DNA of 14,804 nt, taken from IMG/VR virus record IMGVR_UViG_3300025073_000001; one strand, given 5' to 3'. The DNA is from a virus (Duplodnaviria > Heunggongvirae > Uroviricota > Caudoviricetes). A program made the translations under genes and the position numbers. Below, in pieces: positions 1-14,804 of this stretch (its first letter is position 1; each line of letters opens with the position of its first letter). The notes under the pieces were generated by a model. The model saw nothing but the letters and a program-made list of their open reading frames with translations. It had not been told where the DNA came from and searched no databases.

Positions 1-346
1 ATGCCATAGAATGCAATCTTTGAGATATTTGCATAACGTCCATTTCAGGGGCAAATTCACATTCTCCAAACTGCCTAGGATTAGAAGTCATGTGTAAGTG
101 GCCGTGGTAGGCGATTTCGCAGAAATCCAAACTATTTAATTCGTTTGCCCAACCTTTATGTTTGGAAACTGGATACTCGTTGTGCCAATTAGATGGACAA
201 AAGAGTGTAAATTTACAACCATATCGCTCATTTAATTCTCGGAACCATTTTTCAGTCTGTTCTCCAAGAATTCTGTAGCCAGATTTTGGATTACAATCGT
301 CGCAACTGATGGTTATATTTAATTTAAGGTTCGTATCTAAACTCAT
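1..346 (-). CDS. Polysaccharide deacetylase (NodB/CE4 or DUF2334-like), N-terminal part; truncated by the left window edge
   Basis: Not in the ORF track. Hand translation from ATG at 346: MSLDTNLKLNITISCDDCNPKSGY...KFTLFCPSNW...EIAYHGHLHMT..., open to base 1. ITISCDD matches CE4 motif 1 (TFDD-like) and YHGHLH matches the metal-binding HxxxH motif 2. Overlaps the upstream ORF by 23 nt. Confidence 0.75.
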   Translation of the reverse strand, partial: MSLDTNLKLNITISCDDCNPKSGYRILGEQTEKWFRELNERYGCKFTLFCPSNWHNEYPVSKHKGWANELNSLDFCEIAYHGHLHMTSNPRQFGECEFAPEMDVMQISQRLHSMA

Positions 347-641
347 CTTTTCCTTTTGAATTTGAATGAATGTAACAATGAAAAACATTTTTAATCCAAG
401 GGCAAACTTTTACATCTGCACAGAACCAAATGTTTTCTTGATCTTGTGAAAAGACAACGTGATCTTCATAATTACTTCGTTCATAATTCCTTGGATATTC
501 TATCAATGATGATGATTTCAGCCAATTTTCAAATTCATCTGCCCATTTTGTAAATTCTGGACTAATGAACATCGTATCATCGTCAGCACATTCATTTGAA
601 AGAAATAATGCAGCGAATAAATGCTCTTTAAATTTACTCAT
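324..641 (-). CDS. Hypothetical protein (105 aa)
   Basis: Fits the operon; ATGA overlap with the upstream ORF; no motif recognised. Confidence 0.7.
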   Translation of the reverse strand: MSKFKEHLFAALFLSNECADDDTMFISPEFTKWADEFENWLKSSSLIEYPRNYERSNYEDHVVFSQDQENIWFCADVKVCPWIKNVFHCYIHSNSKGKDEFRYEP

Positions 642-889
642 TTCACAATATCTTTTAATTGATTTAAAATTGACGTTTGAGTTTCTCCCCAGAACATTTC
701 ACATTTCCAAGATTTCACAATGACATCGACTACTGCATTTCCATCTTGGATTGGTTCCTCGTCTTCCCAATTTCCAGGAATTTCAACAAAATAACTCTGC
801 CAAAGTGGTTCTTTTGGTCCAGTAAATCTGTGACATTTATCCTTGATTGGACATCCTTCTCCTGAACAGGAGGTGTAATCAGTTGACAT
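638..889 (-). CDS. Small Cys-containing phage hypothetical protein (83 aa)
   Basis: CSGEGCPIKDKCHRF...QSYF...WKCEMFW; four spaced Cys suggest metal binding; tightly packed in the operon. Confidence 0.7.
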   Translation of the reverse strand: MSTDYTSCSGEGCPIKDKCHRFTGPKEPLWQSYFVEIPGNWEDEEPIQDGNAVVDVIVKSWKCEMFWGETQTSILNQLKDIVK

Positions 890-1079
890 TTTGCAATTGA
901 TTTATAATTTGATTCATTCTAATGAAATAAAGCGTAAGATAAGAAATAAACAAGAAGATTGAAATTATGAGCCAAATTCTAGTGCGTTTTTCATTTTTAT
1001 CAACCATACCTAATGCAGACGTTACCATTAACAATACTGTACAAATTTGCCCAATAATCCAAAGTATATTCATTTTCAA
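879..1079 (-). CDS. Small membrane protein, two predicted TM helices (66 aa)
   Basis: Two hydrophobic stretches (ILWIIGQICTVLLMVTSALG; IWLIISIFLFISYLTLYFI) separated by a basic loop; ATGA overlap with the upstream ORF. Confidence 0.7.
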   Translation of the reverse strand: MKMNILWIIGQICTVLLMVTSALGMVDKNEKRTRIWLIISIFLFISYLTLYFIRMNQIINQLQNVN

Positions 1080-1312
1080 TTATCGTTTGAATAATCAATC
1101 ATTTTGTTAAAGTCTGGCGTGAAACTATCGTCTTCCTTGGTTGGAATTTCAGCAACCAACTCTCCCAATATTTCACAATATCCAAGTCCGTTGTTATCAC
1201 AATAAAATCTGGCATCTTTAAATGAAATTCCTGGAACGTTCGGTCCACCCCATAGTTTCAATTCTCCGTCTGACGGATCAATGGCTTGTATTGTCGTTGT
1301 GAATAGTTTCAT
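1076..1312 (-). CDS. Hypothetical protein (78 aa)
   Basis: TAATG-coupled to the upstream ORF; protein-like composition; no family recognised. Confidence 0.7.
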   Translation of the reverse strand: MKLFTTTIQAIDPSDGELKLWGGPNVPGISFKDARFYCDNNGLGYCEILGELVAEIPTKEDDSFTPDFNKMIDYSNDN

Positions 1313-1575
1313 TAAAGATATCCCTTATTTTCATCCCGATATTCCTTGCGAGTAATTGGAATTAACTCCTTGTTATGGAGCCAATCCATTTCATCATCTG
1401 CCCAAACAGAATACCATTTTTGTTCAACTTCATCGTATCTAAAATCAATTCCCCACAATCCAGCATCTCTCCAATAATGATATCCTGCTTTAGGTTCGCC
1501 CCAGTTTTGCTGCTTTCGAGTCAATCGCATTGCAGTATTATGAAGGCGAATGTATTTAGGTGGTTTAATTTTCAT
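1312..1575 (-). CDS. Hypothetical protein (87 aa, Trp/Tyr-rich)
   Basis: ATGA overlap with the upstream ORF; no family recognised. Confidence 0.7.
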   Translation of the reverse strand: MKIKPPKYIRLHNTAMRLTRKQQNWGEPKAGYHYWRDAGLWGIDFRYDEVEQKWYSVWADDEMDWLHNKELIPITRKEYRDENKGYL

Positions 1576-1781
1576 TTCTTTTTATTATCTTCATCCCAAT
1601 AGAACCACGGTTTTTTTGCCTTACCATCTATGAACGCTTGAACCTGTCCTGCTCTATAAATGGCTTGAAATCTCTTTGGGTTTGCAAAATTCCCCCACGA
1701 ATGATCTAACAATGGATATCCCCATTCTTGCTCTTGGTATCCTTTATCAAACCATTTTTGATCATCTTTATTGACTTGCAT
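1572..1781 (-). CDS. Hypothetical protein (69 aa)
   Basis: Overlaps both neighbours in the co-directional array; no family recognised. Confidence 0.65.
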   Translation of the reverse strand: MQVNKDDQKWFDKGYQEQEWGYPLLDHSWGNFANPKRFQAIYRAGQVQAFIDGKAKKPWFYWDEDNKKK

Positions 1782-2124
1782 GATTAACTTTTACTTCTTC
1801 AAATCCCTCTTTGAAGTGTTCATTTAATTGATTTTTAATTTTAATTCTTCCCGCGTTTAAATCCCTGATTGCTAAGGCTCTCCTTCCAACTTCTTCAAGT
1901 CCGAGTTCACCTTCCTTGCCTTGCCGAATATCTGATTCCAATGTCCAAATATCACCATTGGCTTTGAGCAATCCATCAAAGGATTCCTTAATAATATTTG
2001 CATCATAATTCTCTGAATATTCCCTATATTCCTCGCATTCTAAATAAGTGTCAACTTTTCCGCGATAGCATTTTAGATGAGCAATCGTCCAGCGATCGAC
2101 TACGTCTCCAATTGATAATTTCAA
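1768..2124 (-). CDS. DUF6165/DUF4254-like helical protein (118 aa)
   Basis: Pattern SIGDVVDRWTIAHLK...LLKANGDIWTLESDIR...RRALAIRDLNAGRIKIKNQLN resembles the recalled DUF6165 consensus (GELxDKxTILxIK...NxxLWxxExxIR...NxxRxxxKxxIN). TTG start 3 nt after the upstream stop. Confidence 0.5.
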   Translation of the reverse strand: MKLSIGDVVDRWTIAHLKCYRGKVDTYLECEEYREYSENYDANIIKESFDGLLKANGDIWTLESDIRQGKEGELGLEEVGRRALAIRDLNAGRIKIKNQLNEHFKEGFEEVKVNHASQ

Positions 2125-2127
2125 TGT

Positions 2128-2310
2128 TTAATTCTCCATTTCTTTTTTAAATTCAAGTTCTAATTCATCTTCAAAAGGCGAAGGCTCCCAACTGTCTCCC
2201 ATCAATGTTTCCCAATTGCAAGAATCCATTGATCTTCGATGAAAGTTCCACTCAAGTCCTTCAGTTTGAATTGAATATTCAGTGATAATATTTATTTCAG
2301 TTATTTTCAT
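2128..2310 (-). CDS. Hypothetical acidic protein (60 aa)
   Basis: ATG preceded by an A-rich leader; stop 3 nt before the next start. Confidence 0.6.
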   Translation of the reverse strand: MKITEINIITEYSIQTEGLEWNFHRRSMDSCNWETLMGDSWEPSPFEDELELEFKKEMEN

Positions 2311-2339
2311 TTTATTTCTTACAAGTTAAGTGAATATTT

Positions 2340-3404
2340 TTATTTTTCCAAATCTTTTGACAACTTTATTTTTTCCATCACCTCATCCATCTTGATAAAT
2401 GATTTTTGAGTGAATAGATTGCTGAAATTCGCCTTACTTGAATCTTCTAGAATTTTCCACCATTCACCTTTATCAGTAACGGTACATTTTCCTAATGGAT
2501 TATTTTCATTCAAGACTCCTGTTCGCTTCTTTGGATGTCTTCTGTTATGAACGTGGAGGAGATTTTGAAAGCAGTATTGAACGAATTGATCGCCTAATAA
2601 CTTCTTAGCGATTGAACCAATCGAAATATCCTCGCTGCAATGCACCAACGCTTTCGGAATATTTACTCCACTTTTAAGCAAATCTGAACTGAATCCGACA
2701 CATGATCCGTCAAATCTTGGTTCCGAAAACGAAGCAACTTGAATTGTATTGTTAGGAATTGTATTAATTTCTTCCATTCTTTCCCAACTCATGTAACCTT
2801 TACCGGAATCTTCAGAAGTCAACTGCCAATCATTGTCCTGAAACGGAACATTTTCATATCTTGGATGAAGTGGAGCAAATGAATTGTCCCACAATCTCCT
2901 ATCAGCAAAATTAACAATATACTTTGGTGTTTCATTCTTTACAGATTCATGAAGTTGGTCTAAAACTTGCAATGTCTGGCTTGGCCAAAGTGAATCCGTT
3001 TCGCCCCATAAAATTAAATCTTCTTTGTCTTGCCATTCCCAATTGAAATCTCGCCGAGATGCTGCAATGTTGTAGAAATCATCTTGATTTGTTTTGAATT
3101 GAAATCTAAGATTTGCAGGATAGATTCCTTTTATTCCAACCTTATGCTCGAAGATATTTTGAATAGTTTTCATTTGTCCAGTTGGAAACCATGAACCAAA
3201 ATCAAGTCCATATTTATCTTCAAAATATTCCCAATCAATCTTCTCTAAATATTCCTGAGTTGAAAAACAAAAGACAAATGTAACGTTTTCTTTGTTTTCT
3301 ATTCCTTCCAACATTTTAACGCACGATTTGACGTGCTCGTCCAACATTTCTAACTCATAGAACTGAATCAGCGTTCCTATTGCAAACGTGTTCTTTAATC
3401 TCAT
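2340..3404 (-). CDS. Putative GT-A fold (GT2-like) glycosyltransferase (354 aa)
   Basis: N-terminal beta-alpha-beta; YNIAASRRDFN...DLILWGETDSLW matches the GT2 'aRN.g...yilflDxD' region with ETD as the DxD variant; FDGSCVGFSSDLL...HCSED matches the GT2 'G..m.rr...ED' region; late HVHN. Divergent. Confidence 0.6.
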   Translation of the reverse strand: MRLKNTFAIGTLIQFYELEMLDEHVKSCVKMLEGIENKENVTFVFCFSTQEYLEKIDWEYFEDKYGLDFGSWFPTGQMKTIQNIFEHKVGIKGIYPANLRFQFKTNQDDFYNIAASRRDFNWEWQDKEDLILWGETDSLWPSQTLQVLDQLHESVKNETPKYIVNFADRRLWDNSFAPLHPRYENVPFQDNDWQLTSEDSGKGYMSWERMEEINTIPNNTIQVASFSEPRFDGSCVGFSSDLLKSGVNIPKALVHCSEDISIGSIAKKLLGDQFVQYCFQNLLHVHNRRHPKKRTGVLNENNPLGKCTVTDKGEWWKILEDSSKANFSNLFTQKSFIKMDEVMEKIKLSKDLEK

Positions 3405-3709
3405 TTGTACTTGTATTTTAAAACTTTATACTTCTGAATCATTTTATCGTTTCTAACCTTGATCAGGTAAATATCTTCATTCCAGGAATCAAAGCAATAT
3501 TCAAATCCCCTAGACCTCCAAGTCCAAGCAAATAAATCAACGCAACATTTATTGTCGTGTATTAACTTTATTCTCTGAACGCCACAGTGATCAAAATGAA
3601 TGTAATTTTCACTTAATACGATGGTTCCAACGTTGGATTTGACTTCAATTGGTTGAAATTCCTGTGAAATTACAAGATATGGAAGTAGAAGTAAGAGTAA
3701 GAGTTTCAT
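3401..3709 (-). CDS. Putative secreted/periplasmic protein with signal peptide (102 aa)
   Basis: MKLLLLLLLPYLVIS-QEF: basic N-terminus, Leu-rich core, probable cleavage before Gln. Coupled to both neighbours. Confidence 0.65.
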   Translation of the reverse strand: MKLLLLLLLPYLVISQEFQPIEVKSNVGTIVLSENYIHFDHCGVQRIKLIHDNKCCVDLFAWTWRSRGFEYCFDSWNEDIYLIKVRNDKMIQKYKVLKYKYK

Positions 3710-3903
3710 TAATATAACTTATATTCTTTATATTTTTCGTAGAACGCAATTCTGCCAATTTCTTTAAGTTCAGTGACAAATTCCCAAACTTCATCAGTCA
3801 AATCCTCGTGACCGTTCATGTAATCACAATAATGTAACTGTTCATAATCCAGATTTTTGTAATCTGCCCATGTTGCTATCCAAAGCATTTTTGATTTTTT
3901 CAT
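3709..3903 (-). CDS. Hypothetical protein (64 aa)
   Basis: TAATG overlaps on both sides. Confidence 0.65.
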   Translation of the reverse strand: MKKSKMLWIATWADYKNLDYEQLHYCDYMNGHEDLTDEVWEFVTELKEIGRIAFYEKYKEYKLY

Positions 3904-4778
3904 TATATCAATTCTTTTAGTGATTTAATTCTCTTATATCCGACCTCATAACGTTGATTGTGAGGAGCATCGAATAAATAACAGCAAATTCCTGCTTTGT
4001 TCAGTTCAACAAAATTGTCAAATCTGTCATCTACAAAAATATCACAGTCCAATTCTTTCAATACTTCAACCTTTGACTGCCCTAATCCAACCGTATAAAC
4101 TGGACGATGAGGAAATCCGTTTGCATCTAACCACTGCTCCGTTATTTCAGTTGAAACTGGTCTCGATGTGACGTATCCTGCTGGTTCAAATGGAATTTCA
4201 CAAGGAGGAGTTAAAACTTCTAAATTCAAATAAAAATCATCTAACTTTTCATCTTCTTGCATTGCATTGAACCTTGAAGTGATATGTCTGTCAAAGTACC
4301 ATGCAGTTTGTTCTTGAATATTCCACATCTTGCACCAAGCAGGAGCCCATTTACAAAGGACTTCGTCAATGTCAAGATAGATTTTCTTAGGATTCAAATA
4401 ATTGTGATCCCTATTATCCATTTCTGGATGAATCTTGTAGAATTCGATCAACGAAGCAATTCCCCATGCAGCGTTTGCAAGATGTAAAGTTGGACCGAAT
4501 TGTTTCAGAATTTCTTCCGGCCAATCCATGTCATAATCTTCTCCGTCTCTGAACTTTTCAAGATGCCTAATTACTGAACCGACTGATTCTTTCCAAGGCT
4601 GACCGTTTCTCCAATTATCTTCGCCAGTTTCAAGAACATTGCCTTCCGTATCGCGAATGGTGTATTTTTCCGCTCCTGCTGAATAAACCTTAGCGAGTTC
4701 TTTTAGAAAGTTTGGAGGGATTAAATGATATTTGAGTTTTCCTGTATTATATCTTCTTGCCTTTTTCATTTTTAACAA
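3903..4778 (-). CDS. Fusion: dATP/dGTP diphosphohydrolase domain (DUF5664/PF18909-like) + HAD 5'(3')-deoxyribonucleotidase (NT5C-like); likely start is ATG at 4769
   Basis: N-terminal half: RYNTGKLKYHLIP...VYSAGAEKY...DNWRNG...SVIRHLEKFRDGEDYD...HLANAAWG (DUF5664 signature). C-terminal half: IYLDIDEVL (HAD motif I DxD), YVTSR (motif II), FVDDRFDN (motif IV). Confidence 0.85.
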   Translation of the reverse strand: MLKMKKARRYNTGKLKYHLIPPNFLKELAKVYSAGAEKYTIRDTEGNVLETGEDNWRNGQPWKESVGSVIRHLEKFRDGEDYDMDWPEEILKQFGPTLHLANAAWGIASLIEFYKIHPEMDNRDHNYLNPKKIYLDIDEVLCKWAPAWCKMWNIQEQTAWYFDRHITSRFNAMQEDEKLDDFYLNLEVLTPPCEIPFEPAGYVTSRPVSTEITEQWLDANGFPHRPVYTVGLGQSKVEVLKELDCDIFVDDRFDNFVELNKAGICCYLFDAPHNQRYEVGYKRIKSLKELI

Positions 4779-5251
4779 ATTCGCATTAATTTTTTAGCAG
4801 ATTGAATTTCTCCTTCAGTTGGCTCTTCAAAGGGACAATTCATTTCATTTAAAATATCCCAGAATTTAACTGGAAGGTGAATATTTCTCTGATGAATGCA
4901 ATCAATGAATAGTGGAGCGATTTCTTCAATCGAATAACCTGCGTTTTCAGTTCCTATTTTTGGAACTATGAAGGTTAATTCTGGATGTTCCATTGCAAAT
5001 AAAACCAAGTCTAAAATTTCAATTTGAATTTCATTTAGAGTTGATGACCTTTTCTGCCACCAATTCTTCTTCGTGATGATTGCGTAACTTTGACCTTGAA
5101 GTCCCTTACTTTGTCCTAGAATTGCTCCACATTTCTGTAAGGCAAATAACGCTAAACCTTTTTTATGACGACCTTCCGAGTTTCCTCCGAAAACCAAGAT
5201 TTGTCCGGGTTTGATTTCAGTAACAATGTTTGGAGTAATTCGATTGATCAT
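4772..5251 (-). CDS. A1S_2505-family phage protein, macrodomain-like (159 aa)
   Basis: ITP...ILVFGGNSEGRH..GLA...GAILGQSKGLQGQSYAIIT matches the recalled family motif (VFGSNxxGxHGxGAA...GxQGQSYAIPT). VPKIGTENAGY resembles the macrodomain PxIGxGxxG loop. Confidence 0.7.
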   Translation of the reverse strand: MINRITPNIVTEIKPGQILVFGGNSEGRHKKGLALFALQKCGAILGQSKGLQGQSYAIITKKNWWQKRSSTLNEIQIEILDLVLFAMEHPELTFIVPKIGTENAGYSIEEIAPLFIDCIHQRNIHLPVKFWDILNEMNCPFEEPTEGEIQSAKKLMRIC

Positions 5252-5514
5252 GAATCAAATTCGTTTTTAAATTCGAGAAATTCGGTTTCTGAAATTTCAT
5301 TGATTATTTTATCAATATTTTTATCAAACTTTGAAACCTTAAACTCCCATTGAATGGTTTCTGGAGTTGAAACGTCATGTGGAATTGAAGTTGTTTTAGT
5401 AATTTCTGTCAATTGAAAATCTTCAGACAACTTAAAAACAGATTCAATGAAAATATCATTGTCATCATCTCCATCAACATAACCTGAACTAAAATAAATT
5501 GGAAATTGTTTCAT
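5248..5514 (-). CDS. Hypothetical acidic protein (88 aa; start revised from TTG 5592 to ATG 5514)
   Basis: ATG at 5514 forms an ATGA overlap with the stop of the newly found 5511..5669 ORF, which occupies the longer N-terminal extension in another frame. Confidence 0.65.
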   Translation of the reverse strand: MKQFPIYFSSGYVDGDDDNDIFIESVFKLSEDFQLTEITKTTSIPHDVSTPETIQWEFKVSKFDKNIDKIINEISETEFLEFKNEFDS

Positions 5515-5669
5515 CCTGCAAGAATTTGTCCCCAAATTAACCCGTGAACAATTGAAGTTCCAAAGAAATGAAACCAATTTAATCCCTTCCAACTTGGAAA
5601 GACAGAATCACCATCAATTAGAACTAGAATTACTCCGAAGAATGGAATGAATACGTTTAAACCTTCCAT
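5511..5669 (-). CDS. Small hydrophobic/membrane protein (52 aa), absent from the ORF track
   Basis: Hand translation: MEGLNVFIPFFGVILVLIDGDSVFPSWKGLNWFHFFGTSIVHGLIWGQILAG*. Starts 5 nt after the methyltransferase stop and ends in an ATGA overlap, exactly filling the apparent gap. Confidence 0.7.
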   Translation of the reverse strand: MEGLNVFIPFFGVILVLIDGDSVFPSWKGLNWFHFFGTSIVHGLIWGQILAG

Positions 5670-5674
5670 AATGT

Positions 5675-6307
5675 TTAAGATTTTAATTTACAAATTATTC
5701 CCTCGAAGTCCTTAAGAATACGAGCAGGATGGCCTCCGAAGTTATGGTTTGGTTCATGACCGAAATAAGCCACTTTTTCAATCGTTCCAACCCGAATCAG
5801 TTGATTAACAACTTGATAAACTTGGCGATTGTCTTGTCCATAGTCATCAAAGATGAAATAGACCGGATATCGTTCGTCATGTTGTAATTTTAAACAACGA
5901 GTGAAATCCGACATAATTGCATCAAATTCATGAACAGCATCGATGAAGAATACATTACAAGGTTCATGCTTAAAATTTTCTTCCAGCGGCGTATCATAAA
6001 GGTTCATCGGAATGAACTTAATGTTCTGTCTATCTGCATTCAATCTTTCTGCCTGATCAAAGTGATTTGGAAGATTAATTGTATAGACGTTTTTGAACAA
6101 GTGACTCAGGATCCGGGTCGTTTGTCCTTTATGGGTGCCAAATTCAACACAATTGAAATACCTCGATTCAGGGATTGCAGTGAAGAAATTCCACAAATCT
6201 GTCTTGAACTTGAATGAAGTTGTGGAGAGGTTTTGAAACTTGTCCTCCCCACATTCTTCGAGCAATTCTTCTATTGTTTTTAAATAAACTGTTTCTTTCA
6301 AAATCAA
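5675..6307 (-). CDS. Class I SAM-dependent methyltransferase (Methyltransf_24-like, 210 aa)
   Basis: CVEFGTHKGQTT (motif I ExG), FFIDAVHEF (DxxHxY-like) and FIFDDYG, the typical motif set of this group of putative glycan/small-molecule O-methyltransferases. Confidence 0.8.
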   Translation of the reverse strand: MILKETVYLKTIEELLEECGEDKFQNLSTTSFKFKTDLWNFFTAIPESRYFNCVEFGTHKGQTTRILSHLFKNVYTINLPNHFDQAERLNADRQNIKFIPMNLYDTPLEENFKHEPCNVFFIDAVHEFDAIMSDFTRCLKLQHDERYPVYFIFDDYGQDNRQVYQVVNQLIRVGTIEKVAYFGHEPNHNFGGHPARILKDFEGIICKLKS

Positions 6308-6552
6308 TAAATTCTTTTATTTGGTGAAATTGAACATGACATCATACAATTACCATATTCTTGATTAAAGAAACCAATTGGGTTTGAAGTTTTAATTCCA
6401 CTCTTTTCACTTGTGATATTTTCAAATACCAAATCCAAATGATTTTTAATCATTTCAAGTTGTGGTCCAAGTTGAATCTTGTTTGGATGATCAAAGGTTT
6501 CATTTAATTCAAACCATCCGTGAAGCCAATAACAGAAATCTCTACTGTTCAT
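6304..6552 (-). CDS. Conserved-type phage hypothetical protein (82 aa)
   Basis: N-terminal MNSRDFCYWLHGWFEL resembles a recurrent 'xDFCYWLQGFFE' phage motif, with IKNHLDLVF downstream; 4-nt overlaps on both sides. Confidence 0.7.
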   Translation of the reverse strand: MNSRDFCYWLHGWFELNETFDHPNKIQLGPQLEMIKNHLDLVFENITSEKSGIKTSNPIGFFNQEYGNCMMSCSISPNKRIY

Positions 6553-7529
6553 AATCCAAGTTTTTCTTTGACTAAATTATAATTGAAACTGAAATTCTTC
6601 TTTGAATCAACTGGCAAACCTAATGCTAATCCTAATCTCAAAATGGTCGGCTTTCTGACTGCATAAAGTTCTTTCGATGTTTTGAACAAAATTCCTGAAA
6701 CAACTGACCAATCAATTTCTGATGGTTTTGGTGGATTAGGTTCAGTTCCTTCCATCTTAATCTCTTCAATGCACCAAAAATCATCTGCTTCATTTGGATT
6801 AAGTAGGAATGAATAAGGCATCCAAAAATATCCACCATCAACTCCCCAATCTTCACCCCAGGAATTTTGACATTTGAAGCATTTTTTGCTGTCCGAATAA
6901 CCTGTTAAAATTACGCAATGTCCTCCTTGAATTCCCTCATTCTCCTTTGGTAATGGCATAATTCCAGTTGAATTCGCCCAAGATCCAAAGAATGAATCAT
7001 ATACCGTAAACCCAAATACAATTACTGCGCCAGAAACTAAGGTTGCTTTTAAATCATATTCATTTTGATTTACAGTTGCATATTTGACTGTGACATTTTT
7101 CAATCCGTTTTCATATGCATCGGGACTTGGTTTTTTGATAACAGAAGCGAGATCATCGTGATATGGATGGAATTTTTCTAAACATAAGCCAGTTTTATTC
7201 ATTGCCTTGAAACCTGATCTAATGTAAGTTCCAGCGTCTTCTTGAGTTGACCCATCAATATCTCTAGCGTTCCAATAAACAAACAAACGACTCGGTTCAA
7301 AATCGAAATTTCCAGTCAATTCCTTGGCTTCATATCTAAATCCTGAACTGCAACCATTTCCAACACATGATCCTGCGTTGAACTGATTATATGTTGGAAT
7401 TTTGTAATTTAATTCAAATTCACTCGGTAACTCAATTGGAGCAGTTAAATGTCTCGTTGACTTAAAATCCCTTGAATCTGGCGGACTTGGTTTCCAGTTT
7501 AATTTTCTACCATGATTAATTTCTGACAC
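6549..7529 (-). CDS. Papain-like cysteine peptidase (C1A, bacterial xylellain-like) with C-terminal extension (326 aa)
   Basis: NQFNAGSCVG (oxyanion Gln, catalytic Cys), GGHCVILTGY (His), QNSWGEDWGVDGGYFWMPY (Asn); N-terminal WKPSPPDSRD as in bacterial C1A enzymes. GTG start with GAGGA 7 nt upstream. Confidence 0.92.
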   Translation of the reverse strand: MSEINHGRKLNWKPSPPDSRDFKSTRHLTAPIELPSEFELNYKIPTYNQFNAGSCVGNGCSSGFRYEAKELTGNFDFEPSRLFVYWNARDIDGSTQEDAGTYIRSGFKAMNKTGLCLEKFHPYHDDLASVIKKPSPDAYENGLKNVTVKYATVNQNEYDLKATLVSGAVIVFGFTVYDSFFGSWANSTGIMPLPKENEGIQGGHCVILTGYSDSKKCFKCQNSWGEDWGVDGGYFWMPYSFLLNPNEADDFWCIEEIKMEGTEPNPPKPSEIDWSVVSGILFKTSKELYAVRKPTILRLGLALGLPVDSKKNFSFNYNLVKEKLGL

Positions 7530-7541
7530 TATTTATTCCTC

Positions 7542-7859
7542 TTATGTTAGTTGTAAAATTTTCTTAATATTTTTATTGCATTCTTCAATCATTGCATAAG
7601 CATATTCAATGTCAACTTCGTTTCCAGAAAAATCACGATATGAATTTCTTCCATCAACATATTCATTTCTATGATGAAGCCAAGTTAATAATTGACCTAG
7701 ATCTATTAATTCAAATTTTCTCGTATTTCTCGCACTCATCCTTTCATTGTCGACTGCGGATTCTTCTGGATGACCACATTTGATGCACAATCTTGGATAA
7801 GGTTGATTCATTGCTTTTGAATAGACACACCCTGATATATCAGCACATTTATTTTTCAT
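7542..7859 (-). CDS. Hypothetical protein with Cys-rich N-terminus (105 aa)
   Basis: C...C...CIKCGH suggests a Zn-binding module; 12-nt gaps to both neighbours. Confidence 0.6.
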   Translation of the reverse strand: MKNKCADISGCVYSKAMNQPYPRLCIKCGHPEESAVDNERMSARNTRKFELIDLGQLLTWLHHRNEYVDGRNSYRDFSGNEVDIEYAYAMIEECNKNIKKILQLT

Positions 7860-7871
7860 CTTTTATAAATA

Positions 7872-8618
7872 TCAAAATTTTAGAAATTCAAATGTTTTCT
7901 TCATCCAAGCATTAGATTGATCGGGGCTGTTTGGAATTGCATTAAAATGGTAAATTCCGGGAATTTTTGTAAACAAGAACCTATTGTCAAGAACTCCTTT
8001 TCTAGATAAATCCTGCATATTATAACGATATGAAAGAATTTTAACTTCCAATTCAATTTCGTTGGTTAAAAGATTCACGAGCGGCTGATCTGTTCCCGAT
8101 CCGTACTTTTTTTGAGTTGCTAAAACTTTTTCCTGATTGTCCCAATAGAATTTCAACAAAGTTTCATGGACGAATTCAAACGATTTATTTGTCACCATGA
8201 ATCCTGAATTGATATATTTCCAGATGTTGAACTTTTTAGTAAATATTTCAGGGAATTCAAACTGGTAATTTTCAATTGAACGAATAATCCAATCATAGTC
8301 GCCATCGTTGTGAACACCGCAGAATTGATTTTCGGTTAATTCAAAAAAGTTAGGACAATTAGGATGAATAATCGTATCGGCATCTACCGTACAAATCTGT
8401 TCAGTCGTAATATCTGGCAAAAGTTGCGGCCAATAGTGACGGTAATAAATTGGCGACATTGCTGATAAATCCATCAAAGGTTCATCTAAGACGAACAATT
8501 CGCAATTATTTTTTTCACACCAAACTTTCCACGAATGGATTGAAAGGTCGTAAGCATCAGTCCTTCCCGGTTTAGCAGGATTCTTGATGTTGGTGATAAA
8601 GACAATATTTTTTTTCAT
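7872..8618 (-). CDS. GT8-like (GT-A) glycosyltransferase, copy B (248 aa)
   Basis: CTVDADTII (DxD), YINSGFMV (NxG), GTDQPLVN (DQxxLN), YNMQ and YHFN, all hallmark GT8-type motifs. Confidence 0.85.
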   Translation of the reverse strand: MKKNIVFITNIKNPAKPGRTDAYDLSIHSWKVWCEKNNCELFVLDEPLMDLSAMSPIYYRHYWPQLLPDITTEQICTVDADTIIHPNCPNFFELTENQFCGVHNDGDYDWIIRSIENYQFEFPEIFTKKFNIWKYINSGFMVTNKSFEFVHETLLKFYWDNQEKVLATQKKYGSGTDQPLVNLLTNEIELEVKILSYRYNMQDLSRKGVLDNRFLFTKIPGIYHFNAIPNSPDQSNAWMKKTFEFLKF

Positions 8619-9022
8619 CTAATTCGATTTTCTTCTGTTTCAGTTACTTCAATTTCCAAATCCGACCAATATTCAAATACTGGATAGACACTCCGGTAAA
8701 TTCTCCTCTCTCCGGCCCAATGAGCAGGTTCAACGATTAATTCAGAATCAACTAATCCTCCTTTTTTGGATTTTGCATTTTCTTCAGAGTCATCTGACCA
8801 TTCCCCACAAAGATGGAACATTCCAGTCAAATTTCTATCATCGACTGATTTGACAGTTGCTAAATATTGTGGAGAATGATAATAACCATCTGTAAATGAA
8901 TATCGTTGATTTGTCTTTTCTCCGACATATTCATTTTCTCCAATGAAACATTTTTCACTGACTCCGAATGAATTTTTCTTCCAAACAGTTACTAATTTAT
9001 ATTCTTCAATTAATTTATTCAT
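8615..9022 (-). CDS. Hypothetical protein (135 aa)
   Basis: ATGA overlap with the GT gene; no family recognised. Confidence 0.7.
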   Translation of the reverse strand: MNKLIEEYKLVTVWKKNSFGVSEKCFIGENEYVGEKTNQRYSFTDGYYHSPQYLATVKSVDDRNLTGMFHLCGEWSDDSEENAKSKKGGLVDSELIVEPAHWAGERRIYRSVYPVFEYWSDLEIEVTETEENRIR

Positions 9023-9236
9023 AAGAATATTCCGATTTTATAATTTCTGAGTTTCCAACCTTTAATGCAATGGCCCTTGCTAAATCTGAATATCCCTTGA
9101 AATCTCCATATTCATTAATTCCGTGACAGCCAGGGTGAAAATCCCAATAATTTCCTGACATGACTATTTTTCCATTTAAGGAAACTTGTGCCATTTCACA
9201 GGATTTGTCAATTTTTATTTCTATGATGTTTTTCAT
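9015..9236 (-). CDS. Hypothetical protein (73 aa)
   Basis: Overlaps both neighbours; MSGNYWDFHPG segment; no family recognised. Confidence 0.65.
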   Translation of the reverse strand: MKNIIEIKIDKSCEMAQVSLNGKIVMSGNYWDFHPGCHGINEYGDFKGYSDLARAIALKVGNSEIIKSEYSYE

Positions 9237-9592
9237 TTTAATTGATAATTTTCAACTATTTCAATATTGTTTGAATAATGACGCAATGTTGCCCAATCTC
9301 GATTGAATGGTCCAGATGAATCTTCTTTTCTATCAATTGCCAAGTATTCTGAATAATGAGGATTAGTTTGGCTTGACTTATAATCAAAAGTTAAATCACC
9401 TCGTTTCCAAGTCAATAAAGTGTGAAATGTTTCTTCAGGTTCAAATATTTCAACCAATCTCAACGATGCTCCTTCCCAATCGTTAAATTGAACGAAGTAG
9501 ATTCCATCGTATTGAACTTCTTCTTCGTACATTTTGAACTTGATCCTGAGAAAGGAACAGTCTTGGATTTCTTTTCCGTTTTTATCTTTCAT
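9233..9592 (-). CDS. Hypothetical protein, weakly YopX C-terminal-like (119 aa)
   Basis: Begins MKDKNGKEI and ends NIEIVEN, echoing YopX 'DKNGKEIYEGD...EVIGN'; the middle is divergent. Confidence 0.45.
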   Translation of the reverse strand: MKDKNGKEIQDCSFLRIKFKMYEEEVQYDGIYFVQFNDWEGASLRLVEIFEPEETFHTLLTWKRGDLTFDYKSSQTNPHYSEYLAIDRKEDSSGPFNRDWATLRHYSNNIEIVENYQLK

Positions 9593-9783
9593 AAATTTAC
9601 AAATGATTGATTTGAAATTGGTTTTCCATATTTTTCAACATCTTTCTGACATCTGAATATAATTTCTTCAATGGAAACATCCGAATCAGGAATGAATAAA
9701 ACTGATGCTTTCCCTTCACTGATATCATCATATTTGATAAATTTTCCGCAAACATCACATTTAACGTCATATTTATTCTTCAT
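9589..9783 (-). CDS. Small CxxC protein (64 aa; start revised to ATG 9783)
   Basis: MKNKYDVKCDVCGKFI...IFRCQK; ATG at 9783 gives an ATGA overlap with the upstream stop at 9780-9782. Confidence 0.6.
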   Translation of the reverse strand: MKNKYDVKCDVCGKFIKYDDISEGKASVLFIPDSDVSIEEIIFRCQKDVEKYGKPISNQSFVNL

Positions 9784-10052
9784 GTCCATAATACAATGCA
9801 AGGTTTTAAATGTGGATAATCTTTAATGCTTTCTTCAAACTCTTCAAAATTTTCGTAATCATCCTCATTATATGAACATAATTCATTTGAAGGTTGATCA
9901 AAGTATTGTGAACAAATATGATTATCGTCATTTGATAATTCATAGAATTCTTTGAATCCGTTTCCTTCTTCATCTTTGGAAATGACAACGATCCATTCAT
10001 CTTGCGATTCTGGAATGTCATTGACTAACTGTTTAAATTCTTTTACTGTCAT
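9780..10052 (-). CDS. Acidic phage hypothetical protein (90 aa)
   Basis: MTVKEFKQLVNDIP...VVISKDEEGNGF...CIVLW, a common small phage protein pattern; ATGA overlaps. Confidence 0.7.
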   Translation of the reverse strand: MTVKEFKQLVNDIPESQDEWIVVISKDEEGNGFKEFYELSNDDNHICSQYFDQPSNELCSYNEDDYENFEEFEESIKDYPHLKPCIVLWT

Positions 10053-10312
10053 AATATTTCAAATTCACAGAAGTCTTTGTAGAATATTTTTAGAATATGA
10101 ACCTTTTGCTCAATTGTCATCTTTGGTAATTTATCTTCAAATGACAAACTATTTACATGATTAGTTATCAATGGAAGAAAATCATTATTATCCAAAGGAT
10201 TCCAACCATCGCCATTTAAATATATTTCAATTCTTGGAGCATAAGTTTTCGTGTCAAAGATTACTTTCTTAACCTTTTGAACTTTTGTTATTTCGTATCC
10301 AAATATTTTCAT
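10049..10312 (-). CDS. Hypothetical protein (87 aa)
   Basis: Coupled to the downstream ORF; no family recognised. Confidence 0.65.
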   Translation of the reverse strand: MKIFGYEITKVQKVKKVIFDTKTYAPRIEIYLNGDGWNPLDNNDFLPLITNHVNSLSFEDKLPKMTIEQKVHILKIFYKDFCEFEIL

Positions 10313-10316
10313 CGTT

Positions 10317-10574
10317 TCAACAATTTTCGTCTATTTGTAAATCATATCCAACTGGTTCACCTAATGTTTCTTCCAGTCTTCGTTTGAAGTCATCAAATGC
10401 AAATCGCTTTGCAAGATTTAAAGATTGACTTGACCAAGCATCATGTTGGAATGTTACCATCCAGTCATCATCTCTTCGCTCAATGAAATAATAACCAAAT
10501 GTAGTTTTGGTTGAAAACAATTCAAACTCATCAACACCAATCTGAGTCCAAACAAACGGTTTAATCTTTACCAT
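10317..10574 (-). CDS. Hypothetical protein (85 aa)
   Basis: Co-directional, 4-nt gap to the next ORF; no family recognised. Confidence 0.65.
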   Translation of the reverse strand: MVKIKPFVWTQIGVDEFELFSTKTTFGYYFIERRDDDWMVTFQHDAWSSQSLNLAKRFAFDDFKRRLEETLGEPVGYDLQIDENC

Positions 10575-10611
10575 CGTTTATTGATACTTTAAATGTGTGA
10601 ACGTAACCATG

Positions 10612-10914
10612 TTAATTTTCATCTTTTAATTCTTCTGGAAGTGGTGAATTTAGAATAGAATCTTTGTCAACGATATCAGAACCATCCCAAGATCCATCTC
10701 CAATATATTCAAATTTAAGTTCTGCTTCTTCTGAGCAAATCTCCCGTTGCTTTTGACACATAACTTTGGAATATTCCTTCATGATTAAAAATAATTCATC
10801 TAAATCGCAGTCATTAATATCATCATATAAACATTCAGCAATTAATGAATCATGACATTGCTGATCTGTGTCAATTATTTCAAAATATTGAATTAAAAAT
10901 TCTTGTGGTGTCAT
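10612..10914 (-). CDS. Acidic hypothetical protein (100 aa)
   Basis: ATGA overlap with the oxidoreductase; KEYSKVMCQKQREICSEEA segment; no family assigned. Confidence 0.7.
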   Translation of the reverse strand: MTPQEFLIQYFEIIDTDQQCHDSLIAECLYDDINDCDLDELFLIMKEYSKVMCQKQREICSEEAELKFEYIGDGSWDGSDIVDKDSILNSPLPEELKDEN

Positions 10915-11993
10915 ATTATTTCTTTTAATTGATTTGCAATTTGTACTGATGTTCCTATCTTTCCACTGAAAATGGAATATAATTGGTCTGAGTGCTTTGT
11001 GATGTAACTCGGTCTTCCGTCATCATGATCTCTATTCGGCAAAACTGTTCTAATTGTGAACATTGAACCGTGATAGTGAACTCCTCCTATTAATTTACTT
11101 GAACCTTTACTTGATTCGGGAATAACTGGAGTTGAATCAAACTTGAAGAATTCTGAACAACCATTCAAAATGAAAGGGAATCTGGATAAACTTGATTTAC
11201 AAGAACCAATGTTCAAAATGTCTGAATAACCTGCCGGAATCTTGTATTTCTTTCCAAATTGTCTGTCGTGAATGGCTTCCTTAACATGACCCAGAACGTG
11301 AAAATATTTACTGAATCCTAATGGATCAATGCAGCAAAATTCTCCATCCATAATTACCACACCAGTATTCTGCCATTCTTTTCCAACCGATACAATTGGT
11401 TTTTCACACAACTCGAACTGATATTCAAGTTGATTCTCCTCATCTAAAATATCATTGAGGTTAGCATAAGTTGCATTGATGACCAAATCATATTTCTTCA
11501 AGTCCCTTTTCTTAAAAATAGAATTAGTTTTTAATTCAATCCTATTTTCCTTGAGTCTCTTGATTAATTCAAGATAAAGTTCGGCCGAATCAAAACTATT
11601 TTCTTCAACTTTGACAACCAAATCAAGTTTGTTATAAAACAAAGGTAAGTTATTTTCTTCAACTTTCCAATATTTTAACTGATTATTTTCAAGAAAGTTC
11701 AAGTATTCATTTGAACTCACCTTCGATCCTTCTTTAGCAATCGCGTAATATCTCGAACCTTTAACGATGCACGATGAAAATTCAGATTCAAATTCAACAG
11801 TGGATTGAATCATTTCACTGCTTCTTGGATAGTGATATCCTTTGTGCAAACGATATTGATTAATTCCAGATGCACTTGAAAGAATTGAAGTTCCCTTCTC
11901 AAATATTTCAATCTTGGCTTTTTGAAATTTCTCCCTCAACTTTAAGGCCGAATTTATTCCAAAAATTCCTGCTCCAATTATTGCTATTTTCAA
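10911..11993 (-). CDS. FAD-dependent oxidoreductase (DAO-like, 360 aa)
   Basis: KIAIIGAGIFG (Rossmann GxGxxG), IEIFEK (acidic residue ending beta-2), ASGINQYRLHKGYHYPRS, VINATYA, VIMDGEF and C-terminal SGKI. TTG start. Confidence 0.9.
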   Translation of the reverse strand: MKIAIIGAGIFGINSALKLREKFQKAKIEIFEKGTSILSSASGINQYRLHKGYHYPRSSEMIQSTVEFESEFSSCIVKGSRYYAIAKEGSKVSSNEYLNFLENNQLKYWKVEENNLPLFYNKLDLVVKVEENSFDSAELYLELIKRLKENRIELKTNSIFKKRDLKKYDLVINATYANLNDILDEENQLEYQFELCEKPIVSVGKEWQNTGVVIMDGEFCCIDPLGFSKYFHVLGHVKEAIHDRQFGKKYKIPAGYSDILNIGSCKSSLSRFPFILNGCSEFFKFDSTPVIPESSKGSSKLIGGVHYHGSMFTIRTVLPNRDHDDGRPSYITKHSDQLYSIFSGKIGTSVQIANQLKEII

Positions 11994-12062
11994 TTCTAAC
12001 GCCTTCTTTTTCTTTTAATGTAGTTGTGGTTAACTTGGCGGAGATAGTCGCGTAGAGCCCGA

Positions 12063-12518
12063 TTATTTTAATTCTGCGGACAATTCAGTCAAGATTTTAC
12101 CAATTAGATTTTCTCCCCAATTGCTAATATTATCAAGTGCCGATTTTTCATCGTATCCAATTCCCCAAATTCGATCAAAAGGACTTGCTTCAACAAATTG
12201 ACAATCCTTATAAGAAAGCAACTGATGAAGTAAATCAACATTCTGAACAAATTTACATCTCAGTATTTCTTTAACCTTTTCGTATTTAACTTCATCCCAA
12301 GTCTTAGAATCAAAGTTTTTAACCCTTCTACCAATTGCCTTCTGATCCCTCGGCGACATCGCCCAAAGAATTTCTTTGCCAGTTTTTAAATCATTAAATG
12401 TGATGGCCTTTTCATACATCATTGCTTGTTCAGCACAATTGAAGACGATTCCAAGATATTCAAAGTTACTAAGATGCCAATTTGAAAATGGCCCGCTCCA
12501 GAAAAATTTATATTTCAT
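12063..12518 (-). CDS. NADAR (YbiA-like) N-glycosidase / ADP-ribosylhydrolase (151 aa)
   Basis: FFWSGPFSNW, AEQAMMYEKA, KAIGRRVKNFD, KFVQN, FVEASPFDRIWGIG and GENLIGKIL form the full NADAR motif set. Confidence 0.93.
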   Translation of the reverse strand: MKYKFFWSGPFSNWHLSNFEYLGIVFNCAEQAMMYEKAITFNDLKTGKEILWAMSPRDQKAIGRRVKNFDSKTWDEVKYEKVKEILRCKFVQNVDLLHQLLSYKDCQFVEASPFDRIWGIGYDEKSALDNISNWGENLIGKILTELSAELK

Positions 12519-12520
12519 TT

Positions 12521-12787
12521 TTAAAATTTAGTTATTTCAGTTGTTGGAGGTAAATCTTCCTTCAACCTACGATGAAAAGATTCTTCTCCGTCATCACAAG
12601 ATAAAAGATAATCAATCCGTTCCAAGTAAATTCTAGCAGTTTTGATGAAATCTAATCCGATTTCAAATTCAGAAATGGTTTCAATTGAAAATTCGTTAGG
12701 ATTTTCTTCAATGTTCCGTTGAATTTCATCAATTGCTTGATCCCATTCATATCTCCGTTGCAAGTATTCAAATGCTCCTCCTAACAT
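12521..12787 (-). CDS. Phage hypothetical protein (88 aa)
   Basis: GGAFEY...RIDYLLSCDDGEESFHRRLKEDL resembles a recurrent phage family (MSGGxFxY...IDWLLSGDDGE); function unknown. Confidence 0.65.
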   Translation of the reverse strand: MLGGAFEYLQRRYEWDQAIDEIQRNIEENPNEFSIETISEFEIGLDFIKTARIYLERIDYLLSCDDGEESFHRRLKEDLPPTTEITKF

Positions 12788-12788
12788 A

Positions 12789-13070
12789 TTACTTCGCCAT
12801 TATAATTGTTTCTAAAGAAGTTACACCTTGATTAGATGCGGTTGCGATTCCAGAACTTATTCCTTGGAATTTATATCCAAAATAACTCAAAGTGTTCATT
12901 GCTTCTTGAATCGAACCACATTCTACTCTTTTTTGATACTCATTACTCCAATAACTCACCTTCATGTTATAATTGACAATTGTCACATATTCAACTGGAG
13001 GTTTCTGCCAACTAACAAACGCAACGATTAAAAGAATTGCTGCGATTGAAATTAGAATGTTCTTTTTCAT
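12789..13070 (-). CDS. Signal-peptide/anchor-bearing protein, weakly DUF4177-like (93 aa)
   Basis: MKKNILISIAAILLIVAFVS signal; SIQEAMNTLSYFGYKFQG resembles the DUF4177 'LNxLGxxGWELV' core. Confidence 0.55.
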   Translation of the reverse strand: MKKNILISIAAILLIVAFVSWQKPPVEYVTIVNYNMKVSYWSNEYQKRVECGSIQEAMNTLSYFGYKFQGISSGIATASNQGVTSLETIIMAK

Positions 13071-13073
13071 AGT

Positions 13074-13169
13074 TTATGGAAGTTTTGGTTTAATATATTT
13101 TTGAAAGATGAATTGAACAATCACAACTGTCAAACCAATTGTAACTCCACAAATAATTGCTTGTTGCAT
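13074..13169 (-). CDS. Single-pass membrane peptide (31 aa), absent from the ORF track
   Basis: Hand translation: MQQAIICGVTIGLTVVIVQFIFQKYIKPKLP*. ATG 1 nt after the GT stop and TAA 3 nt before the next ATG; hydrophobic helix followed by a Lys-rich tail. Confidence 0.7.
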   Translation of the reverse strand: MQQAIICGVTIGLTVVIVQFIFQKYIKPKLP

Positions 13170-13170
13170 T

Positions 13171-13938
13171 TTATCGATATTGATTTTGAATGAATTCCCA
13201 CGTTGATTTCATCACATTTATGCGATCTTCAATTGGGAATCCGGTGAAATGCCAAATATAGGCGTAATTCAGGAAATATGGTGATTTATTTGCATTCAAC
13301 TGCCAATTATGGGCGAACATATTTTTCTTATGAATTGAAATTAGATTCCAACTTGGATCTAATAATTCAATTTCAACGTTTGACCTTTGTAAGAAAAAGT
13401 TCAGCAATGTCTGTTCTTTTCCTCCTCCATCAATTTCGTTAATTCTTCCTTCATTGGCTATGACAAAGTAAAGGAATTTATGGAAGATATCCAAATATTT
13501 TTTTCCAAAGAATAGAACACCTGTATTCAAGTATTTAAAAATATCAATGGTTGTGTCTGGAAAGAACTTTTGTCTCTGTTCAATTGATGACATGAGCCAA
13601 TTCAAATCGCATAAATCATTGACTCCGTAGAATTTATCTTCTTCTATGAATTCAAAAATATTAGGAGCGTCCCAACGAATCATCGTGTCTGAATCAACAA
13701 CTCCTATTTTATCATATCCCTTTCCGTACTCATATATTAAAGATTTATTCCAAATAGGAAACTTCATTTTGAGTTCATCTTCCTGCAAAACCTTTAAATC
13801 CACGTTGTTCTTAGCACACCAATATTCCCAAGTCTTAATTGAGTATTGTGCGTAATCATGATTCTGAATCTGCCTGTTAGGATCGTTAATGCAGATTATG
13901 AATACGAGTCGTTTTTCTTTTAAATTATTTTTTAGCAT
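13171..13938 (-). CDS. GT8-like (GT-A) glycosyltransferase, copy A (255 aa)
   Basis: GVVDSDTMI (DxD), YLNTGVLFF, KEQTLLN, SWN and IWHFTG. Confidence 0.85.
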   Translation of the reverse strand: MLKNNLKEKRLVFIICINDPNRQIQNHDYAQYSIKTWEYWCAKNNVDLKVLQEDELKMKFPIWNKSLIYEYGKGYDKIGVVDSDTMIRWDAPNIFEFIEEDKFYGVNDLCDLNWLMSSIEQRQKFFPDTTIDIFKYLNTGVLFFGKKYLDIFHKFLYFVIANEGRINEIDGGGKEQTLLNFFLQRSNVEIELLDPSWNLISIHKKNMFAHNWQLNANKSPYFLNYAYIWHFTGFPIEDRINVMKSTWEFIQNQYR

Positions 13939-14677: not shown

Positions 14678-14804
14678 TAAGATTCCTCATTGCATTGGTT
14701 AACAGTTTTTCAACAAACTGATTAATCTTTAAGCAATGCTCATTACAATGACGAACTATTTCATCATGTATTGCTTCATTAACTTGAAATGTCTTAACCT
14801 TTTT
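14649..14804 (-). CDS. Ribbon-helix-helix-like small DNA-binding protein, 5' end outside the window
   Basis: Not in the ORF track. Hand translation: ...KKVKTFQVNEAIHDEIVRHCNEHCLKINQFVEKLLTNAMRNLSESTKPRTE*. Alternating beta strand (KTFQV) followed by two amphipathic helices. Overlaps the endonuclease start by 29 nt. Confidence 0.6.
   Translation of the reverse strand, partial: KKVKTFQVNEAIHDEIVRHCNEHCLKINQFVEKLLTNAMRNLSESTKPRTE

Follow-up and report, generated by a model that had tools for sequence, protein, structure and literature searches.

We analyzed a 14,804-nucleotide stretch of DNA (hereafter, the window) from the tailed-phage record IMGVR_UViG_3300025073_000001 (Caudoviricetes), in which an earlier note, made from the sequence without database searches, had described a dispersed toolkit for glycan synthesis and tailoring. 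The window lies at the right-hand end of a viral contig of 80 kb (G000:C1:65239-80016) and holds 34 consecutive open reading frames (ORFs), all on the minus strand and tightly packed, most of them overlapping or separated by short spacers; its guanine-plus-cytosine (GC) content is ~33% and GC skew is negative throughout. All seven genes named in the note (three GT-A glycosyltransferases, a methyltransferase, a deacetylase, an oxidoreductase dependent on flavin adenine dinucleotide (FAD), and a DUF6165-like protein) are intact minus-strand ORFs whose boundaries agree with it exactly or closely. Direct family scans with Pfam, PHROG and NCBIfam named only some of the window genes, and the three proposed glycosyltransferases matched no model in any of these collections. 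The whole window, searched by megablast against 50,697 GenBank phage records, gave no match.

Two of the three transferases, GT8a (7872–8618, minus strand, 248 aa) and GT8b (13171–13938, minus strand, 255 aa), are GT8-like retaining GT-A glycosyltransferases. The structure of GT8a was predicted, and the assignment of GT8b rests on its paralogy to GT8a (29% identity, E = 4e-26); a DxD motif (VDSDT) can be seen in the GT8b translation. Retaining GT-A enzymes are the closest folds to the AlphaFold model of GT8a (predicted local distance difference test, pLDDT, 94): Foldseek returned 119 matches at E ≤ 0.001, the top one being PBCV-1 A64R (E = 3.6e-7), and A64R, GlyE, XXT1, UGGT, glycogenin and LgtC were all recovered at E values of 4e-7 to 2e-5. 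As modeled, the fold most resembles solved retaining enzymes of families GT8, GT24 or GT34. Neither window copy matched PF01501 (Glyco_transf_8) at E ≤ 10; this model was matched by 16 of the 32 sequences in a family alignment (A1) made of the GT8a query, 30 homologues and the window paralogue GT8b, with a best E of 2.4e-14. Residues D79, D81 and Q178 of GT8a are invariant across the 32 sequences, and in a profile comparison the DxD, DQ and His-Phe stretches align with their glycogenin counterparts. Searched against PDB sequences, the GT8 profile found only weak glycogenin matches (E ~0.1), and single-sequence searches with all three transferases found nothing meaningful. GT8a has at least 236 metagenomic homologues.

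The third transferase, GTA354 (2340–3404, minus strand, 354 aa), is a Pfam-orphan GT-A enzyme of GT2/GT25-like type and served as the anchor for the comparisons below. Its model (pLDDT 91) has a GT-A, GT2-like fold, which VIA-align superposed on SpsA, RmlT, TarS, WrtF and ppGalNAcT with Z scores of 15–16.4 over 200–235 residues; TarP was also among the structural matches. Residues R117, E135, D137, E258 and D259 are invariant in 30 sequences, and the predicted structure clearly combines a GT-A fold with acidic metal-binding and catalytic motifs. The family is small, with 387 matches in 5.8 billion clusters and 396 representatives among 1.84 billion proteins, and no relatives turned up when 185,579 species genomes were scanned by pattern. 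The GT2 Pfam domain is absent from all sampled family members; among 21 distant members, GT25 was matched in one (1.3e-6) and PF00535 in none. A specific likeness to the trypanosome base-J glucosyltransferase was considered and dropped, given that a search of Swiss-Prot AlphaFold models gave only generic GT2, GT25 and GT62 rows, although a missing row in that search does not exclude the base-J family. A protein identical to GTA354 sits on a 229-kb ENA scaffold. Three related loci carry, ~1 kb upstream of the full gene, a 36-residue piece 69% identical to the GTA354 N-terminus (L013:8913-9020, also in L015 and L023), which is a remnant of duplication or replacement; over this locus three IMG/VR contigs have identical sequence.

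Two predicted tailoring enzymes and a small companion protein accompany the transferases. The class I S-adenosylmethionine (SAM)-dependent methyltransferase (5675–6307, minus strand, 210 aa) reaches 25.6 bits on Methyltransf_24, just short of the 26.3-bit cut-off, and orthologues lie above it (29.4, 33.0 and 36.9 bits). In relatives it adjoins the GT8 genes, and in two of them a single fusion protein combines methyltransferase and GT8 domains, the domain order of one being the reverse of the other (L026:6192-7550 and L022:7359-8726). At the left edge, the window contains the N-terminal 129 of the 260 residues of a putative deacetylase (1–388, minus strand), the gene of which continues 394 bases past the window's end (full ORF, G000:C1:64844-65626). 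What the earlier note called a NodB-type deacetylase is better described as a CE4-like DUF2334 protein: the full protein scores 31.1 bits on DUF2334 (PF10096; cut-off 26) and its orthologues 38–49 bits, and a DD pair (D30, D31) and an H-x3-H motif (H95, H99) are invariant in 12 orthologues, but the full protein has no match to Polysacc_deac_1 (PF01522), which we take to belong to the same Pfam clan as DUF2334. A DUF2334 family profile found nothing in the PDB.

The companion protein (1768–2124, minus strand, 118 aa) lies directly downstream of GTA354. Hidden Markov model (HMM) searches gave E = 0.11 for DUF6165 and 0.03 for DUF4254 (0.0049 for DUF4254 with an orthologue), and the Atlas places it at 0.94 with viral clusters, 16–33% of whose members carry DUF6165; what it has is likeness to DUF6165 only, the HMM threshold not being reached. 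In every relative that has it the gene stands immediately after that of GTA354, and 40 columns are invariant among 14 orthologues; a profile search of the PDB found nothing. Cellular homologues 43–51% identical to it occur in DPANN archaea, bacteria of the candidate phyla radiation (CPR) and Planctomycetota. A glycosyltransferase gene (GT4 or GT2) lies directly beside the homologue in four of five cellular loci checked, and methyltransferase, sulfotransferase and SDR genes also flank these homologues. In a Crocinitomicaceae metagenome-assembled genome (L057:5371-6357), the DUF6165-like sequence forms the C-terminus of a 329-aa protein, the N-terminus of which matches the 8xMP membrane-protein family.

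The glycan genes do not end with the window but continue for ~8.9 kb beyond its left edge. Within 9 kb on that side lie the rest of the DUF2334 gene, a gene for a 319-aa protein (u319), a 418-aa GT2 glycosyltransferase (GT2_418; PF00535), a CmcI-like methyltransferase and an SDR enzyme, matched as an extended-SDR nucleoside-diphosphate (NDP)-sugar epimerase/dehydratase at E = 2.7e-53. The description of u319 as GT4-like is based on an Atlas lead and a weak BshA match (E = 0.017).

We compared every ORF in the last 30 kb of the contig with 24 IMG/VR loci anchored on GTA354 and taken with 10-kb flanks; three of these were identical, leaving 22 distinct loci. Glycan genes were retained at most of them: u319 in 19 of 22, GT8-like genes and GT2_418 in 18 each (GT8b itself in 18, mostly in tandem with GT8a), the SDR epimerase/dehydratase in 15, the methyltransferase and the DUF6165-like protein in 14 each, and DUF2334 in 11. 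The remaining 51 ORFs were retained at a median of 0 and a maximum of 7 loci, and unsupervised clustering of all ORFs in these loci ranked the same glycan families highest. The genes follow one order on one strand (GT8b, GT8a, methyltransferase, GTA354, DUF6165-like, DUF2334, u319, GT2, SDR), which holds in 15 of the 16 loci that have both GT8 and GT2 genes; the exception is L020. At that locus, the region homologous to u319 (L020:11011-11958) has five stop codons in the matching frame and may be a pseudogene, or its coordinates may be off. In distant relatives, with GTA354 proteins 34–47% identical, the core is a compact operon of 5.8–8.6 kb, compared with 21 kb here. Because order and co-occurrence are conserved, the set is compact in relatives and the methyltransferase and GT8 domains are sometimes fused, the "dispersed toolkit" is one old module stretched by inserted small ORFs and unrelated genes.

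Most of the earlier note's assignments hold up under this analysis. Its three GT-A glycosyltransferases are borne out by predicted folds in the case of GT8a and GTA354 and by paralogy in that of GT8b; the methyltransferase and the DUF6165-like protein are present, the latter with a weak HMM signal; and the view that the genes form one functional glycan set is supported by their co-occurrence in relatives (11–19 of 22 loci, against the median of 0). Two outcomes that the note had named as refuting, a lack of co-occurrence in related genomes and folds that are not confirmed, were checked, and the observation withstood both. Nucleotide-sugar enzymes, for which it had suggested scanning the flanks, were found just outside the window, where the NDP-sugar epimerase/dehydratase is joined by GT2 and a second methyltransferase. 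The proposed span of 1–13938 fits less well: it does contain glycan genes, but it also takes in unrelated ones, and the module runs on beyond coordinate 1.

Relatives show how the module varies. One complete relative, 157 kb long, has the core nested within 17 kb of sugar genes, which contribute a Polysacc_synt_2 dehydratase, a sugar C-methyltransferase, an RmlD-like reductase, a DegT aminotransferase and a further GT2. The pattern is one of a constant transferase core and variable sugar-tailoring genes. Directly after the module's GT2 gene, the same relative encodes an Fe/Mn superoxide dismutase that is extended at its N-terminus by ~100 aa (L028:14871-15785). Another locus (L024:13449-15878, from IMGVR_UViG_3300033074_001484) has the GT2_418 homologue as a single 810-aa ORF, in which an in-frame insertion of ~375 aa immediately follows the catalytic ED motif. 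The insertion has Ser at its start, His-Asn and then Ser at its end, and two LAGLIDADG-like motifs; it looks like an intein, for which a glycosyltransferase would be an unusual host protein. Where inteins lodge points to conserved, important sites, and the position of this intein-like insertion suggests that the GT2 catalytic ED motif is one.

Several other genes of the region lie outside the core. The DAO-family FAD oxidoreductase (10911–11993, minus strand, 360 aa), also named in the earlier note, matches DAO (PF01266) only in the N-terminal FAD-binding part (profile positions 1–64 of 353; 27.5 bits against 27.9), with an orthologue reaching 35.6 bits over positions 1–84 and an Atlas score of 0.98 to DAO clusters. 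It occurs in only 5 of 22 loci, in that subclade always between two GT8 genes, and is a subclade accessory of uncertain membership. A reading as UDP-galactopyranose mutase was dropped when Pfam scans showed no GLF domain. The protein is a generic DAO-family enzyme and not part of the module core, and with it the oxidation step of the pathway drawn in the note loses its footing.

Family scans also identified a dATP/dGTP diphosphohydrolase N-domain fused to an NT5C-like nucleotidase (3903–4778, minus strand; 3 of 22 loci; hereafter, the dNTPase fusion) and a papain-family peptidase (Peptidase_C1; 6549–7529, minus strand; 6 of 22 loci), which has no predicted signal or membrane segment and in relatives always lies between GT8a and the methyltransferase. 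A NADAR-domain protein (12063–12518, minus strand; E = 3e-42; 0 of 22 loci) and a 159-aa protein of phrog_2072 (4772–5251, minus strand; 7 of 22 loci) appear to be insertions into the module. Judged by these distributions, the flavoprotein, the papain-like protease, the dNTPase fusion and the NADAR protein are not core genes. At the upstream end, a GIY-YIG/NUMOD3 homing endonuclease found by family scan (13925–14677, minus strand) overlaps the start of GT8b by 14 bases and has paralogues on the contig at 10467–11474 and 31449–32318. The last 26 bases of the window (14779–14804) are absent from the 80-kb contig and do not match its start; therefore, the window derives from a longer assembly.

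The module-bearing relatives have genomes of 128–293 kb and carry a Gp23-type capsid protein, which marks them as T4-like. Compared by capsid protein, their closest counterparts in culture are Microcystis phage Mel-JY01 (61.5%) and then Flavobacterium phage immuto (58.5%), and the clade probably infects Bacteroidota. A sample of 301 Bacteroidota genomes contained no GTA354, and a GT8-like profile matched three of the 301 at E ~4e-4. These two families, the ones searched, appear to have no close Bacteroidota homologues, and the enzymes do not look host-like. Nor did tblastn searches with GT8a, GTA354 and the DUF6165-like protein give any match in the 50,697 GenBank phage records.

Genome-wide checks covered five module-bearing records, namely four related IMG/VR records and the 80-kb contig. 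The priming transferase Bac_transf was found in none of the five and in 9 of 14 control genomes, in a search that did not include HMMs for Wzx, Wzy or WecA. The sugar nucleotidyltransferase NTP_transferase was likewise found in none of the five, with 14 of 14 controls positive. With neither a priming transferase nor a nucleotidyltransferase found, the phage therefore appears to rely on host nucleotide sugars and to be unable to make a surface polymer alone. None of the module enzymes has a predicted transmembrane segment; all are predicted to be soluble.

We tentatively propose that this stretch, from a large uncultured marine phage, covers the upstream two thirds of a glycan-assembly module that is conserved, specific to phages and cytoplasmic, and that belongs to a T4-like clade with its nearest cultured relatives on Flavobacterium. 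Nucleotide sugars would be taken from the host, as the absence of a detected phage nucleotidyltransferase implies, and the SDR enzyme, together with the extra tailoring enzymes of some relatives, would remodel them. Four to five soluble transferases of differing families would then add residues successively, and the glycan would be O-methylated and probably de-N-acetylated. The acceptor would be virion proteins of the phage itself, a situation known from chloroviruses and mycobacteriophages. This scheme builds on folds, families, synteny with co-occurrence, and predicted solubility, from which we infer the reaction order, the donor sugars and the acceptor.

Among possible acceptors we lean toward virion proteins, with a confidence that stays somewhat below even. 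We do so because the core persists throughout a clade in which host surface chemistry should vary, because the enzymes are phage-specific rather than host-like, because the varying set of tailoring genes resembles what diversification of an exposed glycan would produce, and because no priming transferase was found and no membrane segments are predicted. We also counted for this reading that the top structural match of GT8a is a capsid-glycosylating enzyme of PBCV-1.

A number of points weigh on the other side. The acceptor is not named by direct evidence and, as the earlier note had stated, cannot be read from the sequence. Undecaprenyl-linked intermediates of the host, on the inner side of the membrane, are also within reach of soluble transferases. 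The module does not lie beside structural genes, and in the complete relative the capsid gene is ~65 kb away. Scans for sigma-70 promoters and terminators and a reading of the intergenic spacers gave no enrichment, no shared motif and no indication of when the module is expressed. Several family assignments for this genome's own copies fall just below curated cut-offs, and the argument from missing machinery is built on HMM searches that did not cover the Wzx and Wzy families. In addition, A64R and TarP are generic top structural matches for small GT-A enzymes and come up in the same way for DNA-glycosylating phage enzymes (bioRxiv 10.1101/2023.12.21.572611).

Remodeling of the host envelope, in which the phage transferases would act on host lipid-linked intermediates (lipopolysaccharide (LPS)/O-antigen, capsule or Bacteroidota O-glycosylation), is a rather unlikely alternative. 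The host's own priming enzyme, flippase and ligase would complete the work, and the result would be superinfection exclusion or avoidance of progeny trapping. Such soluble transferases normally work on membrane-bound lipid carriers, and cellular GT8 enzymes such as LgtC build LPS cores. A place among accessory genes distant from structural genes would suit this role, which is the usual one given to sets of glycosyltransferases plus epimerases in the cyanomyoviruses P-SSM2, S-SCSM1 and S-SCSM2R (PMC12801897). It is harder to reconcile with a core and gene order that are conserved over a broad clade, among whose hosts surface glycans should vary, with enzymes that lack close homologues in the sampled Bacteroidota genomes, and with the failure to find a Bac_transf priming transferase in the module-bearing records or any membrane protein within this genome's module. 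A lytic T4-like phage would also have little time for renewal of the host surface.

Some other cytoplasmic product is unlikely to be the acceptor, and an oligosaccharide on a modified DNA base, protecting against restriction or CRISPR as in the T-even phages, RB69, DLP3 and 5mYOX-linked clusters, is improbable. Known DNA-modifying clusters combine GT-A enzymes (TarP as top hit), GT8-like enzymes (A64R as top hit), a BshA-like GT-B and epimerases (bioRxiv 10.1101/2023.12.21.572611; PMC13326640), and GTA354, GT8a and u319 give the same top PDB hits as those clusters. However, the likeness of GTA354 to Swiss-Prot models is generic (GT2/GT25/GT62), and no base-hydroxylating partner accompanies the module: a ThyA homologue is present only in the complete relative (G002), 35 kb from the module, none is present in G001 (293 kb, 91% complete), and ThyX is found only in G003. 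A Tet_JBP search gave no matches anywhere, controls included, and is uninformative. A glycan built by five transferases, a methyltransferase and a deacetylase also seems, in our judgment, large for a nucleobase. In the complete relative, the open frame that holds the ThyA homologue is 430 aa long, far longer than usual (G002:C1:99923-101131).

The earlier note had kept DNA hypermodification in play on account of the dNTPase fusion, which does lie inside the module here. This link has weakened, as the fusion is retained in only 3 of 22 loci, no thymidylate-synthase-type hydroxylase accompanies the module, and phage immuto has the GT4-like, SDR and GT2 genes in common with the module, yet no glycosylated nucleoside has been reported from its virion DNA (PMC10516641). 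Liquid chromatography–ultraviolet–mass spectrometry (LC-UV-MS) of that DNA detected only deoxyadenosine (dA), deoxycytidine (dC), deoxythymidine (dT) and a formyl-preQ1 deoxynucleoside, all deoxyguanosine (dG) being replaced (PMC10516641). Searches for QueC and TGT in the records, which would have tied the fusion to 7-deazaguanine, gave no significant matches, and a divergent DpdA could escape PF01702. There is a slim chance that a methylated oligosaccharide is carried on a base other than a hydroxymethyl- or hydroxy-pyrimidine; a replaced purine is a candidate because the dATP/dGTP diphosphohydrolase–nucleotidase fusion lies in the module and dG is fully replaced in the cultured relative. If true, a glycan on a replaced purine would be a new class of DNA hypermodification. 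A chance neighborhood of unrelated accessory genes in a hyperplastic region, with no pathway at all, retains only a very faint likelihood: the region is rich in mobile small ORFs and homing endonucleases and several assignments here are below Pfam cut-offs, but this reading is largely refuted by the co-occurrence and order data, the genes having been selectively retained in fixed order across the 22 loci while intervening ORFs were lost, and by the methyltransferase–GT8 domain fusions.

Large marine phages often carry sugar-transferring genes with an unidentified target, and here a fixed core of such genes is defined across a T4-like clade. Sets of transferases with epimerases in large marine myoviruses (PMC12801897), the core transferases of moraphages (PMC12619734) and the immuto cluster were already known. 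New here are a core with fixed order, the Pfam-orphan GT-A family, the methyltransferase–GT8 fusions, the DUF6165-like companion and a threefold expansion by insertion. The core includes a transferase family for which Pfam has no model and the searched genomes have no cellular homologue. If virion proteins are the target, this would possibly be the first virion-protein glycosylation system in T4-like marine phages, and a glycan coat could influence how a common group of marine viruses recognizes hosts, aggregates, is grazed upon and decays.

Among described systems, the cyanophages P-SSM2, S-SCSM1 and S-SCSM2R have sets of transferases and NDP-sugar epimerases listed as "cell wall synthesis and modification" genes (PMC12801897). 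They too are large marine myoviruses, with numerous soluble transferases and SDR epimerases clustered among the accessory genes, and the acceptor is unknown there too; they differ in lineage, the phages studied here being near immuto, and the fixed core and order are shown here over 22 loci. The "moraphages", large aquatic phages with predicted Bacteroidota hosts, count four glycosyltransferase orthogroups among their core genes (PMC12619734). They share T4-type structural genes, a predicted Flavobacteriia host, conserved transferases, Hsp20, and antitoxin-like small genes beside homing endonucleases, a likeness drawn from the published description; the moraphage paper (PMC12619734) gives no gene order, core set or tailoring genes.

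The arabinosyl-5-hydroxycytosine clusters of RB69 and DLP3 (PMC13326640) and the 5mYOX- or ThyS-linked clusters (bioRxiv 10.1101/2023.12.21.572611) resemble the module in their succession of GT-A, GT8-like and BshA-like types with epimerases and in giving the same generic top PDB hits. Their defining neighbors (5mYOX, a thymidylate-synthase homologue, a C5-methyltransferase, a dCTPase and a nucleotide kinase) do not accompany the module, with the reservation that the search for the 5mYOX type (Tet_JBP) was uninformative. The A064R protein of PBCV-1 joins two transferase domains and a methyltransferase domain, an arrangement comparable to the methyltransferase–GT8 fusions of the relatives. Its N-terminal domain (PDB 2P6W, 2P72, 2P73) is the top structural match of GT8a and belongs to a virus-encoded cytoplasmic machinery, although sequence identity to GT8a is ~10%, making this a fold-level likeness, and PBCV-1 is a eukaryotic virus.

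A further comparison is with phage immuto, which shares about half of the module in a cluster annotated in GenBank. Next to its homologue of GT2_418 (43.8% identity, E = 1e-89) lies an NDP-sugar epimerase; a u319-related GT4 (24.7%, E = 1e-5) and a methyltransferase are also present, and the shared genes keep their relative order. Immuto has neither of the GT8 genes, nor GTA354 or the DUF6165-like protein; in their place it encodes different transferases, a pair of aminotransferases and a "pilin glycosylation protein" of acetyltransferase-like type. Since immuto is cultured and shares half of the cluster, the question of the acceptor can be tested at the bench.

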